NCBI GenBank assembly: GCA_022844165.1
Contig: JALHMH010000007.1
Coordinates: 32,001 to 96,000 of the forward strand
Length of the DNA: 64,000 nucleotides
Direction of reading: 5' to 3'
From: Lysobacterales bacterium
GTDB taxonomy: Bacteria; Pseudomonadota; Gammaproteobacteria; Xanthomonadales; SZUA-5
Position 1 is the stretch's first letter. The number at the start of each line of letters is the position of its first letter. The translations under genes and the position numbers were made by a program. This document shows, one piece after another, positions 57,649-64,000 of the stretch. The notes under the pieces were generated by a model. It saw nothing but the letters and a program-made list of their open reading frames with translations. It searched no databases and was not told where the DNA came from.

Positions 57649-57860
57649 CCTGATCGCCGCTCGCCTTGCCGGCTCCATGCACCTCCGGAATGGCCTTTCA
57701 AAGCCAAAATGAATTCAACGCGACAGAACCGCAGTGTCTCATTGTCGACCGCTGGTTGCCGCTCATCTTGGAAGCCGAACGCGCTGGATCTCTCAGGCGC
57801 CCACTGCAAGTGCTTGCCGCCGCTGACATCCCACGGCAGTCGATTGAACAACAATGGCAT
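57645..57860 (-). CDS. possible small hypothetical protein
   Basis: ATG-started 71-aa ORF whose stop overlaps the GlcF-like start (ATGA); no family recognised. Confidence 0.2.
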   Translation of the reverse strand: MPLLFNRLPWDVSGGKHLQWAPERSSAFGFQDERQPAVDNETLRFCRVEFILALKGHSGGAWSRQGERRSG

Positions 57861-57953
57861 GTGCGAGCACAGGATTGAGCGGGAACGGTAGTCTACGGGT
57901 CAGAACGGCAAGCGTTTTGTGAACCGCAACTGCCGGCTTGCAGCAATTTAGAC

Positions 57954-57983
57954 TTGCAGACTAGCCTTCAGACCCTCTACACT
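57954..57983 (+). promoter_or_regulatory. putative sigma70 promoter of rplM-rpsI
   Basis: TTGCAG-N18-TACACT followed by GC-rich CTCCGGC. Confidence 0.55.
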
Positions 57984-58023
57984 CTCCGGCTCTTTGAAAG
58001 TCTAGGTCCATGGAGTGGTCCAC

Positions 58024-58452
58024 ATGAAAACGGTCAGCGCTAAGCCGGAAACCGTAAAACGCGATTGGTTCCTGGTCGATGCCTCGGGCAAGACGCTCGG
58101 CCGCCTGTGCACGGAACTCGCGCGTCGTTTGCGCGGAAAGCACAAAGCGATCTACACGCCGCACATCGATACGGGCGATTTCCTCGTCGTCGTGAATGCC
58201 GAAAAAATTGCCGTCACCGGCAACAAGCTCAACGACAAGCTCTATCACCGCACCACAGGTTACATTGGTAATCTGAAGACGGTCTCGTTGAAGAACATGT
58301 TGGCTGACCATCCCGAACGTGCGATCGAAATCGCCGTCAAGGGCATGTTGCCGAAGGGCCCGCTGGGCCGCGATATGTATCGTAAGCTCAGAGTTTACAA
58401 AGGCTCCGAGCATCCGCACGCCGCGCAGCAGCCGGCCGTACTCGACATCTGA
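58024..58452 (+). CDS. rplM: 50S ribosomal protein L13
   Basis: MKT..AKP..V.RDW..VDA.G..LGRL, GKHK..YTPH.DTGD, GMLPK. Confidence 0.98.
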
Positions 58453-58466
58453 TTTAGGACGCACCC

Positions 58467-58859
58467 ATGGCTTCGACGCAACATTACGGCACCGGCCGCC
58501 GCAAATCTTCCGCCGCGCGCGTGTTTCTGCGCCCAGGCAAAGGCCAGATCACAGTGAACGAGAAGTCGCTTGACCAGTTTTTTGGTCGTGAGACGGCACG
58601 AATGGTGGTGCGTCAGCCCCTGGAGCTGACCAATCTCGCCGAGCGATTCGACATCCTGGTGACCGTTGCTGGCGGCGGCATGACCGGTCAGGCTGGCGCC
58701 ATTCGCTTAGGCATCTCCCGGGCGCTCGTCGAATACGATGAGAATCTGAAAAGCGATCTGCGCAAAGCTGGCTTCCTGACGCGTGACGCCCGCGAAGTTG
58801 AGCGCAAGAAAGTCGGTTTGCACAAAGCCCGTCGCGCGACCCAATACAGCAAGCGCTAA
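58467..58859 (+). CDS. rpsI: 30S ribosomal protein S9
   Basis: [34 protein letters not shown]...QYSKR. Confidence 0.98.
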
Positions 58860-58910
58860 TCGCACTTGCCCGATCCACCCGTGTCGCCCGCGGGTGCATC
58901 GCAGCGACAT

Positions 58911-58984
58911 TGGGGGATCGTTCAACGGTAGGACAACGGACTCTGACTCCGTTTATCTAGGTTCGAATCCTAGTCCCCCAGCCA
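58911..58984 (+). tRNA. tRNA-Gln (anticodon CTG)
   Basis: TGGGGGA/TCCCCCA acceptor stem, ACGGA-CT-CTG-AC-TCCGT anticodon arm, CTAGGTTCGAATCCTAG T-arm, GCCA end. Confidence 0.97.
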
Positions 58985-59607
58985 AAAACATGGCCGCCGC
59001 AAGGCGGCCATCTTTTTTGGCTGGGGGACTGGGTGAGAACCTATGAGGTTCGACTCGGAGCGCAGGATGCGCGGAGAGCGCGAGCGAAGCGAGGCCAAAG
59101 GCCGCGGGCCATGGATGGCCCGCGCAATCCTGGTCCGCCAGCCAAAAACATGGCCGCCGCAAGGCGGCCATCTTTTTTGGCTGGGGGACTGGGTGAGAAC
59201 CTATCAGGTTCGACTCGGAGTGCGGGATGCGCGGAGAGCGCGAGCGAAGGCGAGGCCAAAGGCCGCGGGCCATGGATGGCCCGCGCAATCCTAGTCCCCC
59301 AGCCAAAAACATGGCCGCCGCAAGGCGGCCATCTTTTTTGGCTGGGGGACTGGGTGAGAACCTATCAGGTTCGACTCGGAGCGCAGGATGCGCGGAGAGC
59401 GCGAGCGAAGGCGAGGCCAAAGGCCGCGGGCCATGGATGGCCCGCGCAATCCTGGTCCCCCGGCCAAAACATGCCGCCGCAAGGCGGCCATGGATGGCCC
59501 GCGCAATCCTGGTCCCCCAGCCAAAAACATGGCCGCCGCAAGGCGGCCATCGACGGCACAGCGCGCGCCCTGATGCGCTGCCTCGCCCCAGCCAAAAACA
59601 TGGCCGC
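58966..59607 (+). repeat. tRNA-linked (RtT-like) tandem repeat array: 3 full 160-161-bp units plus 3 truncated units
   Basis: Units start at 58966, 59126, 59287, 59448, 59505 and (partial) 59586; the first five begin with a copy of the tRNA 3' end AATCCT(A/G)GTCCCCCAGCCA (variants in units 2 and 4). Confidence 0.95.
58990..59018. terminator. intrinsic, probably bidirectional, terminator after tRNA-Gln, repeated in each full unit
   Basis: ATGGCCGCC-GCAA-GGCGGCCAT followed by CTTTTTT and preceded by AAAAA. Confidence 0.8.
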
Positions 59608-59613
59608 AACTGA

Positions 59614-62600
59614 TCAGGGTTCCGTTCGTCGCCGCGGATCCAGGCCCTCTGCATCGATCACGCGATTCTCGCGAAGCAGGTCGTAGATCAGATCGGTGAG
59701 TGCGGCCATGGCCTGTCTATCGGATTTGAGCATTAGTGTCGCCAGCTTTTGGTGTGATGTCAGCGCGCGCACCACGCCCTGTTGCACGGCGCCGGGCAGG
59801 TTGCCCCTGAGCGCCTGGTCTCGTGAGTTGTTCTCCACTTGAGCGACCACCACATCGTTCTCCTTGGCGATCGCCGCGATGTGGTTGACGAACATCGCCT
59901 GATCTCGTAACGGCGTAGCCTCTCCGAATAGCCGGTTAAGGCGGTTGATGATCTCCATCAGGTAGTCAGGCTGGTCATCCCGTACCTCGCCCCCTGGGCC
60001 GATTGGCTTCAATTTGGGTGGCTCAGTGCCGGACTTCTTGGCCGGTTCAGTCGACTTGATCTCGAAGCCCGTCAGTAAAATTCCATCCAGGTCGACATTG
60101 TCCGGCGTCACGCCCCTCAGCCGCTTGGTCAATAGGCGCGCGAAGGCAGTGAAGTTCTCCAGCTCCGGGTCACCAAAGTCGATAATCTGCGCAATGTACG
60201 CGTAACTTCGGCAGAAGCGCCCCAATCCGCTCTTGAACCCAAGCAGCGCGCTCAGCTGTTCGCTGTAAGCCTTACGTTGATGATCGGCCGACTTGGACGC
60301 CGCTTCATCCCCGCGCTGGCGGGCAGCCTCGTAGCTCGCCTCCCATTCGGCAACGGTGTCTGACAAAGCCTTGACCCGCTCGTTGAACTGGCGCGTGGTC
60401 CGCTCGGTCGCCGCGTACAGCGCCTTGTGCCGTGCATCTTCCTTCTTGGTCACGTCGCCGACGGTCTGAAAGCGCGCCTGCTTGAACCGTTCCAGATCCA
60501 CTGACGCATAAAGGTCGTGCGCGTCAAGTTGTTCCTTGATCTGGTAGACCACGTTCGGATCCTGCACATCCTCGATTGCGGCACCGTCATCGTATTTCGC
60601 GAACGCGCGGCGAACGCTGACCGGATCGTTGATGAAGTCCACTACGAAGGTGTCGTCTTTGCCCGGCGCCGTGCGGTTCAGGCGCGACAGGGTCTGCACA
60701 ATCTCGACGTCGTTGGCGATCTTTTTGTCCAGGTACATGGCGACCAGCTTGGGCTGATCGAAGCCGGTCTGAAACTTGTCGGCGACCAGCATCACCCGGT
60801 ACTCCGGTCGCTCGAAGGTGGCCGCCAGGTCATGACTGTCGGCACCCGGATTCATGCTGGCCTCGGTGAACTCTGCCTTGTCGTCAACCACGAAGGTGTC
60901 GCCAGCGATGCGCTGATCGGCGGCGTGCGTGATCTGCTTGCCGGTCAGCTTGCCGGAAAAGGCCACCAGTGAGCGGATGCCGGCGTATTGCGGATGGCGC
61001 TCGATGTAGCGATCGAAACCGATCTTGTAGCGCACCGCGGCCGCGCGTGAACTGGTTATCACCATCGCCTTGGCCTTGCCGTCCAGGCGATTGCTGACGT
61101 TGCGGCTGAAGTGCTCGATGATGAATTGCACCTTCTGGGTGACATTGGTCGGGTGCAAGCTCATCCACTGCGCCAGCGCCCGCTTGGCTTGTCGTCCGCT
61201 GACGCGCTTGGCGTCCTCGACCTGCTTCGCCAGATTGAAAGCCGTCTGGTACGGCGTGTAGCCGCGCAGCACGTCCAGGATGAAACCCTCATCGATCGCC
61301 TGCCGCATCGGGTACTTGTGGAAAGCAACCGGTGGGTGTTCCTTGCTGCGTTTGTGGCCGTCCACAGGGCGCCCGAACAGCATGTACGTCGAGTGCTTGG
61401 GCGTCGCGGTGAAGGCAAAGTGGCTTAGATTCTTCGGTCGTAGTCGCGATTGCTGCAGCTTTTCCAGCAGTTCCTCGATGGTCAGTCCGGCGATTCCCCC
61501 TTCGCCGCCCAACGCCAGCGCGGCTTGCAGCTTGGTGGCGCTGGTGCCCGTCTGCGAAGCATGCGCTTCGTCGATGATCACCGCGAAATTGCGGTTCTTC
61601 AGGCCGTGCTCGGTGACGATGGCCTCCATCGCATACGGGAAGGTCTGGATGGTGACCACGATGATCGGCGTGCCCGCCAGCAAAGCCTCAGCCAGTTGCT
61701 TGCTCTTGGATTGAGAGGACTTCTGGCGGTCAATCGCCGCGATCACGCCGAAGCGGTGGTCGATCTGTTTGACTGCGTCCTGCAACTGGCCGTCGAGTAC
61801 CGTGCGGTCGGTCACGATGACTACGCTGTTAAAGATGGCCTCGCCATCGTCGCGGCGCAGCTTGATCAGATCGTGCGCAGTCCAGGCGATGGTGCTGGTC
61901 TTGCCGGAGCCGGCGCTGTGTTCGCACAGGTACTGCATGCCGGGGCCGTTGGCCTTGGCATCGGCTACCATCGCGTTCACGGCCGACCATTGGTGGAATC
62001 GCGGGAAGATCAGCGTCTCGCGACGGGACCAGTTGCCTTTCAGGTCCACCACGTCCTTCTTCTCGGTGTAGACAAAGCTGTGAAAGATGCGCAGCCAGGC
62101 GTCGCGCTGGCAGATGTCTTCCCAGAAGTAGGCCACCGGGTACTCGCCATCCTCGCGCGGCGGATTGCCGGCCCGACCCTTGTGGCCACGGTTGAAGGGT
62201 AGGAACAAGGTGTTGTCGCCATCCAGCTTGGTGGTCATCCGGATATCGGAGTCCGACATCGCAAAGTGGACACGGCGCCGCGCTTGAAGGTCAGCAGGGG
62301 CTCGCGCCGACGCGTCTTGGCATCGACTGGCAGTCGGTCGGACTTATACTGGGCCATCGCCGCATCGGCGGACCGTGTGAAATCGGTCTTGAGCTCGACC
62401 GTGGCCACCGGAATGCCGTTGATGAAAAACACCAGGTCGATGGCCAGCGTGCGCGACGGGTGGTACTGCAATTGCGGCACCACGCGCAGCCGGTTCGCCG
62501 CGTAGCTCTCTTTGACCTTGGCGTTGCGCTGGTCTTCGGGCACAGCCTCAGACATCTCGATATGTCCGCAACCCGCCAGCGAGAATCCGCGCCGCAGCAG

Positions 62601-62864
62601 GTGGATGGTGCCGTCCTTGTCCAGTGCCTGTGCCAGTCGCTCCAGCAGCGTCTCGCGCGCAAGCGCCGGGTCGCCATGGTTCGCCTTCAGCAGGCGCTGC
62701 CAGCGCTCCTTCTGACTGTCCTGCAGCCAGCCCAGCACATCCTCGGGGTAAAGCGCGCGCTCGGTGTCGTAGTCCTGCGTGGTACCCACCAGCCAGCCCT
62801 GATCGCGCAGGCGCGCCAGCACATAGGCTTCGAAGTGCCTTTCCCGGTGATCTCGGTCATTCAT
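59614..62864 (-). pseudogene. hsdR: type I restriction endonuclease subunit R, split by a 1-bp frameshift near 62271
   Basis: N-terminal part has IDLVFFINGIPVATVELK (nuclease motif); C-terminal part has HSAGSGKT, DEAH, FTATPK, QTLSRLNR; adding one G gives continuous FKRGAVVHFAMSDSDIRMTTKL. Confidence 0.88.
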
Positions 62865-62998
62865 TGGGGTGCCTCGTTGGACCTGTCATCTGCGTGACGC
62901 GCCACAAAGAATCGCTCATACCACTCGCCAAGGCGCTTACCGGCCTGGCGGATCAATCCCGCGAGTGCGGCGTCGTCTACGGCGCAGAAGGTGTTCAC
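62861..62998 (-). CDS. 45-aa ORF (MNTFCAVDDAALAGLIRQAGKRLGEWYERFFVARHADDRSNEAPQ), possibly a gene remnant
   Basis: GTGA overlap with the upstream stop and ATGA overlap with the hsdR start; fills the gap exactly; absent from the supplied track. Confidence 0.6.
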   Translation of the reverse strand: MNTFCAVDDAALAGLIRQAGKRLGEWYERFFVARHADDRSNEAPQ

Positions 62999-63903
62999 AA
63001 TGCGTCTCCCGCTGCCTTCGCGAGTTGGTCAGCTTCCCAGTCCTTGTAGGTCTTCGGGGAATTCTTCAGTCGCCAGTCCAACGTCCCGTTGGCCGGGCGA
63101 CCCTTCACCGCTGCGGCGGCTGCGCTCGGGCTCTTGAATGCATAGTTGGTGGTGAACACGCAGTGCGTCGTTCGTGGTTCCAGAACTCCCATGCGGAGCA
63201 GTTCGGCATGCGGTTTGGCGTAAGCGTGGTCAGCAGGCCCGGTCCACGCAAGGCGCGCTTGCGAGCCGGCCTGCACGATGAACTCGCCACCCTCAAGAAT
63301 GGCCGCAGCGGCGATTCCGTACTTGCGATCGCTCAGCTCGAACTCGGGACTGCCGCTGGCCGCCGACACGTGAAGTGCTGGCGTGTTGGGTCGCTTGTTG
63401 CTGATGAAGAGATCAATCCGAAGCGCAGGAAGCACCATCAGCACGTTTTCGAGAAAGGCCTCCATGTTGGCCTGCGCAGCTTCGCTTAAGCCAGGGCGCG
63501 CAGGCGTGTTGCCGTTCTCCAGCGGCACGCGCCCCACGGCGCGCGCCTCCTCGACCAGACGTGCTTCCAGGTAGCGCACATGCGCCTTGTTGAGGACGTT
63601 CGCGGCCGAAGTGACCAGTACCGCGGCAGTCCACCAGTCCTTCTGCCCGTCGTGGTTGCGCATGCGGGCACTGATGTCCTCGGCCTCGCCGATGTAGGCG
63701 AGAGGAAGACCGTCGCGCTCACCGATCAGCAGATAGACGCCGGTGTAGCGCGCCTCCTTCCGAGCCAGCGCGTCGCTGATCTGCGTGCGCGGCACCATGA
63801 GCAGGTGACCGGTCCAATTGAAGACCTCGGCGGTCAGCATGCCATCCGGGCGACCGTCGATGAAATACAGCTCCAGCGAGCGACCTTTGGTCTGATGGCT
63901 CAT
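62995..63903 (-). CDS. GIY-YIG nuclease family protein with DUF4357 domain
   Basis: GVYLL...YIGEAE....RM..H...KDWW, L.KAH.RYLE, N.N.P; C-terminal F.V.AGS, F.SPSAAA..V.GR..NG...W. Confidence 0.88.
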   Translation of the reverse strand: MSHQTKGRSLELYFIDGRPDGMLTAEVFNWTGHLLMVPRTQISDALARKEARYTGVYLLIGERDGLPLAYIGEAEDISARMRNHDGQKDWWTAAVLVTSAANVLNKAHVRYLEARLVEEARAVGRVPLENGNTPARPGLSEAAQANMEAFLENVLMVLPALRIDLFISNKRPNTPALHVSAASGSPEFELSDRKYGIAAAAILEGGEFIVQAGSQARLAWTGPADHAYAKPHAELLRMGVLEPRTTHCVFTTNYAFKSPSAAAAAVKGRPANGTLDWRLKNSPKTYKDWEADQLAKAAGDAL

Positions 63904-64000
63904 GCGACCTCCCGCAGATCGATCTGGCCGGTGACGGCGGCGGTGATCAGGGCGGAGCGGCGTTCTGACCGCAGTATTAGGCTGCGCTCGGTGGCCGCCA
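63900..64000 (-). CDS. hsdS: type I R-M specificity subunit, 3' end only
   Basis: Translates ...ERRSALITAAVTGQIDLREVA*, a typical HsdS C-terminus; ATGA overlap with the GIY-YIG gene. Confidence 0.8.
   Translation of the reverse strand, partial: AATERSLILRSERRSALITAAVTGQIDLREVA

Follow-up and report, generated by a model that had tools for sequence, protein, structure and literature searches.

The transfer RNA (tRNA) gene tRNA-Gln(CUG) of a Lysobacterales bacterium (assembly GCA_022844165.1, contig JALHMH010000007.1, positions 32,001 to 96,000; this 64-kb stretch was analysed as a whole and is called the window below) is followed by an array of repeats that carry the tRNA's own 3′ end, and the locus raises the question of what kind of element such an array represents. 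We conclude that it is probably a tandem array of tRNA-linked repeats (TLRs) attached to tRNA-Gln(CUG), and a divergent relative of the Rfam family RtT (RF00391). This assignment draws on four observations of the present analysis: the anatomy of the array, its class membership, the match between its arms and the host tRNA, and its conserved structure. The class is already known, and the array is a tRNA-matched divergent form of it. Descriptions of TLRs go back to 1978 (Egan and Landy, 1978; Rudd, 1999; both via PMC8144298); Escherichia coli K-12 carries 22 copies at ten loci, all of them with 3′-terminal 18–19 bp that are an exact copy of the upstream tRNA or ribosomal RNA (rRNA) gene's 3′ end, and PMC8144298 describes the elements as having no known function.

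The host gene is followed by three units of 160–161 nt, two truncated units and a stub, the array ending at 59607. The features are as follows (scores are given for Rfam RtT and for R1, a covariance model described below):

58911–58984, + strand: host gene tRNA-Gln(CUG) (ARAGORN; Rfam tRNA, 62 bits).
58985–59144, + strand: unit 1 (160 nt), with terminator 58990–59011 and its T run, arm 59018–59033, core motif 59034–59057 and tail 59126–59144 (17/19 identical to the tRNA end); RtT 26.7 bits, R1 51.4 bits (E 1.3e-11).
59145–59305, + strand: unit 2 (161 nt), with terminator 59150–59171, arm 59178–59193, core motif 59194–59217 and tail 59287–59305 (19/19); RtT 26.9 bits, R1 48.1 bits.
59306–59466, + strand: unit 3 (161 nt), with terminator 59311–59332, arm 59339–59354, core motif 59355–59378 and tail 59448–59466 (17/19); RtT 26.9 bits, R1 52.0 bits (E 8.5e-12).
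59467–59523, + strand: unit 4, a 57-nt deletion derivative (from the unit alignment and the 57-bp period), with tail 59505–59523 (18/19).
59524–59594, + strand: unit 5, diverged (71 nt), with an intact terminator hairpin at 59529–59550, 35 nt that have diverged and, at 59586–59594, a remnant of 9 nt left over from the tRNA end.
59595–59607, + strand: stub AAAACATGGCCGC, the opening 13 nt of a further unit, broken within the hairpin.

Tandem Repeats Finder recovers the array as a period of 161 bp (58966–59491; 3.3 copies, 96% matches), with a second period of 57 bp at 59429–59557. The last 19 nt of the tRNA (58966–58984), AATCCTAGTCCCCCAGCCA, recur as the tail of each full unit; in a search allowing up to three mismatches, five copies are present, none with more than two (at 58966, which is the tRNA's own end, and at 59126, 59287, 59448 and 59505) and no further copy exists in the 64 kb (0.01 expected by chance), the 9-nt remnant that ends at 59594 being a sixth. 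All full units follow the same order: an A run, a 9-bp G+C-rich hairpin with a GCAA loop, a T run, a 16-nt arm, a core and the 19-nt tRNA tail. The arm, TGGCTGGGGGACTGGG, is complementary to the tRNA 3′ end at 15 of 16 positions, and together with the flanking A and T runs the complementary match extends to 20 nt (95%). Each core starts with TGAGAACCT...AGGTTCGACTCG, and the core motif TGAGAACCTnnnAGGTTCGACTCG is found three times directly 3′ of the arm, against 0.00 expected matches. Two claims of the original prediction, which had been made from the DNA letters alone, are thereby borne out: three tRNA-derived units that each hold the 19-nt tRNA end and a GCAA hairpin are recovered both by Tandem Repeats Finder and by the 19-mer search, and the 15/16 antisense arm is present in all three full units. 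Elsewhere in the window, including the surroundings of a tRNA-Ser gene (559–651), no second copy of the element was found by motif search, by R1 or by eye. When positions 58900–59620 were compared by BLASTN with 72,556 plasmid and 50,697 phage records, the only matches fell in the tRNA-Gln part (query positions 3–94), and no repeat was found.

The full units are not identical, differing pairwise at 4–6 positions in the unit alignment. For instance, one small hairpin reads GTGCG/TGCGC in unit 2 instead of GCGCA/TGCGC, and both substitutions stay paired as G-U wobbles on the + strand. Unit 4 retains a damaged hairpin, the last hairpin and its tail and has lost the T run, the arm and the core, with its deletion junction at a GGCCAT microhomology. 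This gradient suggests an array that is young on the tRNA side and has decayed at its distal end. It also bears on the possibility that the array is an assembly artefact in which a single unit was wrongly expanded. Tandem repeats of about 160 bp are indeed hard to assemble from short reads, and the source genome was not among the 11 loci returned by our scan of other genomes (see below), which leaves the copy number without a comparison. However, the pairwise differences between the full units and the continuation of the array past unit 3, through two differently decayed units and a stub, argue against an artefact; arrays of the same kind are present in the finished E. coli K-12 genome (four RtT copies, tyrT-tyrV), and a tandem pair was found at one of the scan loci, in Amphritea. 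We therefore regard an artefact as highly improbable.

In its position and its ends, the array corresponds to the published description of TLRs: it lies directly 3′ of tRNA-Gln(CUG) in the same (+) orientation, and its tails repeat the 3′ end of that tRNA, perfectly in unit 2 and with one or two mismatches in units 1, 3 and 4. The Rfam RtT model aligns over its entire length (1–130 of 130) to all three full units, at an E-value of about 0.03 after correction for 4227 families. The resemblance to the E. coli tyrT repeats, noted in the original prediction, is real, as is apparent from this alignment, from the K-12 locus itself and from the results with R1. This covariance model was built without any window sequence from 12 TLRs of E. 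coli and the scan loci, 11 of which score above the Rfam threshold (the exception being L010). Applied to the 64 kb, R1 gives four matches at E ≤ 10: the three full units score 48.1–52.0 bits (E 9e-11 to 8.5e-12), and the remaining match, at 8.4 bits (E 2.4), is noise. Thus the units are recognized by a model derived from other genomes, as expected of long-form TLRs. Since the R1 score may be fed in part by the tRNA-derived ends, a sequence-only profile of the core, devoid of arm and tail, was also built; it is significant only for the three units (E 1.1e-4 to 2.4e-4), the next best match having an E-value of 2. The conserved start of the core, TGAGAA(C/G)CT followed by a short loop and AGGTTCGA.TCG, has three exact matches against none expected and corresponds to invariant columns of the alignment.

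Relatives were sought in species-representative genomes with a degenerate core motif whose loop length excluded the common enteric form. None of the 11 loci returned had three motif matches, and nine of them exceed the Rfam RtT threshold, L007 being cut by a contig end and L010 giving no hit at E ≤ 1. According to ARAGORN, the host tRNA is Gln(UUG) at seven loci, Lys at two and Arg(CCG) at one, with none at the last. The Gln(UUG) loci belong to Ectothiorhodospiraceae and other gammaproteobacterial metagenome-assembled genomes (MAGs; L002, L004–L007, L009 and L012), the Lys loci to Rosenbergiella and Rouxiella and the Arg(CCG) locus to Bacterioplanoides. At the two loci checked for context (L006 and L009), the element lies between tRNA-Gln(UUG) and prs-rplY, a housekeeping setting. 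One record (L005) is titled as a Halobacteria archaeon MAG and shows a tRNA-Gln(UUG), an RtT element and a prs-like start, as in the gammaproteobacterial MAGs; its contig may be mis-binned. The Amphritea MAG (L008, 1120–1480) carries two tandem TLR units with tRNA-Lys-like 3′ ends and a terminator hairpin after each; no tRNA gene is present in the 1.3 kb upstream, and we consider it an orphan array.

In E. coli K-12, R1 finds five TLRs in the lys/val operon and three in the arg operon, and a further, weak match lies behind rrfB. No TLR linked to glutamine tRNA genes was found in the K-12 metT-glnX operon (L013), which contains four of these genes: with its filters off, R1 gave only 12.7-bit matches located on the tRNA genes themselves. 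The absence of matches at these genes, set against the matches in the lys/val and arg operons, suggests that glutamine tRNA hosts are a feature of other lineages.

The ends of the repeats were compared with the tRNA next to which they reside. Among 14 pairs of TLR and host, the element's last 19 nt differ from the host tRNA at no position in eight cases, at one in three and at two in three. The arms follow the host as well. When the 16 nt preceding TGAGAA in 15 elements were each scored against the tail of every element, the best tail belonged to the arm's own host class for 13 of the 15 arms, with one tie and one failure (Rouxiella); the mean duplex energy is −21.3 kcal/mol within the own class (55 cells) and −10.9 kcal/mol with other classes (170 cells). 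The arms of the TLRs in the E. coli lys and arg operons are host-matched too. For 12 sequences from outside the window, RNAalifold predicts the helix between arm and tail, with both sides changed in 5 of its 10 pairs. The window units, with their 15/16 arm, share the closing helix and the host-following arm of long-form TLRs. In an alignment of 18 sequences, 92.9% of 493 cells are paired, compared to 32.5–46.6% with slid partners; double (compensatory) changes occur in 11 of 29 pairs, and the covariation score was reached by none of 500 shuffles. The 5′ arm therefore changes with the host tRNA across Tyr, Lys, Arg, Gln-UUG and Gln-CUG, and the co-variation that had been proposed as a check of the original prediction is positive over these five host types.

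The match extends beyond the arm. In a right-anchored comparison, the 5′ segment of the element corresponds to an antisense copy of the tRNA T arm and of the 3′ strand of the acceptor stem, over up to 27–29 nt. Host-specific T-stem bases can be recognized in this antisense segment where the host is Tyr, Lys or Arg, and in the window four of five can. By our own count and with one gap of 1 nt, the window segment agrees with the antisense sequence at 23 of 29 positions, including 15 of the terminal 16, and its arm is the most complete among those examined. The antisense T-loop is usually altered to TGAGAA. Mismatches in the arms are often A-to-G changes that keep a G-U pair on the tRNA-sense strand, as in the window arm, the Gln(UUG) arms and the copy in the tyrT spacer; together with the small hairpin of unit 2, such changes fit selection on the sense-strand RNA. 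An antisense origin of the entire 5′ segment from the tRNA 3′ part was not stated in any paper that we found, Rudd (1999) lying outside that check. A long TLR located after lysQ in E. coli K-12 (L014, 3183–3309) carries an unaltered antisense T-loop and T-stem of tRNA-Lys (GATTCGAACCTGC), at a place where the other long TLRs examined read TGAGAAC; the lysQ copy looks like a less modified state.

The antisense copies visible for the Tyr, Lys and Arg hosts and the unmodified antisense T-loop behind lysQ suggested to us that TLRs could be more than passive trailers, namely a class of element with ends that their generating mechanism copies from the host tRNA. In the window the antisense copy reaches the CCA, and the resulting 16-nt site, complementary to the 3′-terminal part of tRNA-Gln, has the form of a retroviral primer-binding site; it could capture tRNA-Gln or prime from it. 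Alternatively, through a stem of about 36 bp, it could single out read-through tRNA precursors for a nuclease specific for double strands. We consider this reading as a whole very unlikely.

Returning to the array as a tRNA-linked repeat, folding predictions suggest how its RNA might behave. Unit 2 alone has a predicted fold of −78.8 kcal/mol (z −6.8), a stability reached by none of 200 shuffles, in which five small hairpins are enclosed by a closing helix of 16 bp between arm and tail. For the tRNA together with its read-through transcript, a single long hairpin is predicted (z −8.1), in which the T arm and the acceptor 3′ strand pair with the antisense segment across the terminator stem; a read-through stem of about 30 bp, as originally proposed, thus corresponds to the predicted minimum-energy fold. 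We infer the transcription, processing and recombination history of the array from these predictions and from the unit pattern. Since the tRNA and then the terminator fold first, most tRNA transcripts should end at the first terminator, before the arm is made, and the units would be transcribed only upon read-through. The arm of a read-through transcript could then pair back across the terminator with the preceding tRNA-type end, forming the stem of about 36 bp, or alternatively pair forward with its own tail and close a multi-branched fold resembling the acceptor/T-stem half of a tRNA. The terminal 46 nt of every unit are also those of the tRNA gene and its flank, so that nucleases cutting behind the tRNA should also cut behind each unit, and this cleavage would release structured RNAs of about 130–160 nt with ends at or near CCA. 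Small RNAs ending in CCA and a modulation of tRNA maturation, both put forward in the original prediction, are hypothetical in this organism. The same processing argument is made by the authors of PMC8144298 for copies linked to 5S rRNA. Finally, the unit pattern and the forms with 1.5 units at L004 and L006 suggest that the array expands and contracts by unequal recombination between direct repeats of 19–46 bp, the distal units possibly decaying by microhomology deletions.

As for transcription of the host gene, tRNA-Gln(CUG) is located 3′ of rplM-rpsI, some 51–52 nt from rpsI, and neither a promoter-like nor a terminator-like site scored in the spacer (58860–58910); the tRNA may be co-transcribed with rplM-rpsI. 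Relatives of the array are transcribed, e.g., RtT RNA in E. coli and RrB in rrn operons (PMC8144298), and an RtT small RNA is reported to be expressed and up-regulated in Thioalkalivibrio (PMC8092127). In Pasteurellaceae, RtT-family RNAs are reported to adjoin Asn and Lys tRNA genes (PMC4986893).

Several points weigh against the assignment and against an RNA role of the units. The scores of 26.7–26.9 bits fall short of the RtT gathering threshold of 45 bits, which is why we call the units divergent relatives rather than Rfam-defined members; of the Rfam comparison suggested with the original prediction, the full-length alignment to three units stands and the threshold is missed. By the published definition this is a TLR array, and by the operational threshold of Rfam it is only a divergent relative of RtT; as a consequence, standard annotation would miss it. 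Similarity to the core profile is confined to the first 30–33 of 89 positions, so that homology by sequence holds for the core start, and beyond it only the set of hairpins can be compared. The pair counts of the 18-sequence alignment come from sequences fitted to the model structure, which favours that structure. The window arm also pairs the terminal GCCA, an end that is single-stranded in most other TLRs examined, and the mimicry of a tRNA half is accordingly imperfect in the window. Over the whole array, the minimum-energy fold prefers hairpins between each arm and the upstream tail, at every unit, to the closing helix of the Rfam type. No σ70-like promoter scored in 57800–59900, and three strong terminators in series should leave the distal units almost untranscribed. 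Transcription with the operon and processing into a discrete RNA, a further trait of published TLRs, are predicted for the units from their folds and by analogy to E. coli and Thioalkalivibrio. Lastly, the sole phenotype that PMC8144298 mentions for an E. coli tyrT RtT copy was later attributed to a neighbouring gene.

Comparison with known systems places the array within the class and at some distance from its founding member. The E. coli tyrT/tyrV RtT array (rttR; RF00391), with four K-12 copies of 133–137 bits, is likewise tandem and directly 3′ of a tRNA; its units end in the last 19 nt of this tRNA, its 5′ arm pairs with the tail and its core starts with TGAGAA(C/G)CT...AGGTTCGA.TCG. It differs from the window array in its host (tRNA-Tyr), in its period (178 bp), in having no terminator hairpin between CCA and arm, and in the central sequence of the core, and the window units score only 26.7–26.9 bits on the Rfam model; its arm is about 10 nt long and leaves ACCACCA unpaired, whereas the window arm spans 16 nt and covers the GCCA end. 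The Gln(UUG)-linked loci share with the window a high G+C content, a glutamine tRNA host, a hairpin after the CCA (with a GCAG loop) and a host-matched arm. They differ in reaching the Rfam threshold (52.8–66.4 bits at six of seven loci), in carrying 1 to 1.5 units where the window has three or more, in a hairpin without a T run, in the UUG anticodon and, at the two loci checked, in having prs-rplY as neighbours.

The short TLRs of the E. coli lys/val and arg operons and the RrA, RrB and RrF elements behind 5S rRNA have the same 18–19-nt 3′ identity with the upstream stable RNA gene (PMC8144298). The short E. coli TLRs also have host-matched arms and, unlike the window units, are mostly 84–88 nt long and devoid of the inner GAACCT/AGGTTC hairpin. 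RrA, RrB and RrF bind Hfq and CsrA in vitro (PMC8144298), and tRNA-linked copies are not known to do anything comparable. The RNA 3′ETS-leuZ also originates from the trailer of a tRNA transcript (PMC8144298); the likeness is in the manner of production only, as it is not a repeat and contains no copy of the tRNA 3′ end.

Taken with its relatives, the window array shows that the TLR class is wider than its curated model, reaching G+C-rich and apparently non-enteric Proteobacteria and a tRNA-Gln(CUG) host. The design of the family is a conserved cargo of hairpins held between a 3′ tail identical to the end of the host tRNA and a 5′ arm that follows this tRNA. The function of TLRs has been a question since 1978, and an array with a strong terminator, a complete antisense arm and three near-identical units would make a convenient test case, giving no answer alone.

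The far end of the array faces a converging gene:

59614–62259, − strand: type I restriction R-subunit-like (hsdR-like) gene (Pfam SWI2_SNF2, ResIII and T1R_D3-like).

The stop codon of this gene lies 7 nt from the end of the stub. The GCAA-loop hairpin is present in four unchanged copies and scores on both strands in a terminator consensus scan, which gave 13 terminator-like sites for the region, compared to 2.0 for shuffled sequence. On the minus strand, these hairpins are placed to meet the hsdR-like transcript, first at 59550–59529, and the same hairpins that would act behind the tRNA could terminate the converging gene. This arrangement raises the alternative that the array is a two-way stack of terminators, or insulator, between rplM-rpsI-tRNA-Gln and the hsdR-like gene, with the core as a mere passenger. 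The four unchanged 9-bp G+C-rich hairpins with their A and T runs and the convergence of the flanking genes are in its favour, and a pure stack role is possible for the distal units 4 and 5, which keep the hairpin and have lost arm and core. Yet distant genomes conserve the core and the closing helix, with compensatory changes, many TLRs (e.g., that of E. coli tyrT) have no terminator between tRNA and arm, and the two substitutions in the small hairpin of unit 2 preserve pairing on the + strand through G-U wobbles. A stack with a passenger core is unlikely to be the whole explanation of the array.

The neighbouring restriction genes also invite an explanation by integration, according to which the repeated 19-nt tRNA ends are attachment-site scars or decoys left by integrative islands targeting the T-loop of tRNA-Gln, the restriction cluster being such an island. 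Attachment cores in tRNA genes often begin in the T-loop and run to the CCA, and the repeat spans precisely this part. Moreover, the R-subunit-like gene and a gene with a DUF4357 domain begin 7 nt past the last stub, and the last copy is broken inside its hairpin exactly at the boundary of the cluster. However, no integrase or recombinase family was detected among the open reading frames (ORFs) tested in 59614–64000, i.e., the 4.4 kb visible downstream, and the 19-mer has no distal copy within the window, outside of which the cluster has its far end; tRNA-3′ direct repeats flanking an integrase-bearing mobile element are thus not seen among the tested ORFs and within the window. The G+C content is 0.59–0.65 on both sides of the boundary, with no step at 59607. 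Relatives reside in island-free places, between tRNA-Gln(UUG) and prs-rplY (L006 and L009), between tyrT and tyrV and within the E. coli lys and arg tRNA operons, and internal hairpins with compensatory changes are not expected of a scar. The lack of an integrase downstream, the even G+C content and the housekeeping intergenic settings of relatives speak against the decoy attachment sites of the original prediction, and an origin of the tails as scars or decoys is quite unlikely.

A further alternative is that the array codes for a small basic protein, as was once suggested for tpr in the repeats of E. coli tyrT. Three frames, of 217, 233 and 128 aa, are open through the array (58953–59686, both strands), and RefSeq annotates tpr and ychS over the K-12 RtT copies, two ORFs that may be carried by repeats in the same manner. 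On the other hand, none of the three array ORFs has a Pfam match at E ≤ 0.01, frames open on both strands are what is expected of G+C-rich repeats, and the pattern of conservation is that of paired RNA positions, which makes a coding role scarcely credible.

Beyond the array, a 302-aa ORF with a C-terminal DUF4357 domain (62995–63903, − strand) adjoins the restriction gene, the rest of the cluster extending past the window end. The hsdR-like gene itself is split, with the HSDR_N domain in an ORF at 62235–62864 (− strand) and the helicase and domain-3 parts in the ORF at 59614–62259 (− strand); the two overlap by 25 nt in different frames, consistent with either a frameshifted pseudogene or a sequencing error.

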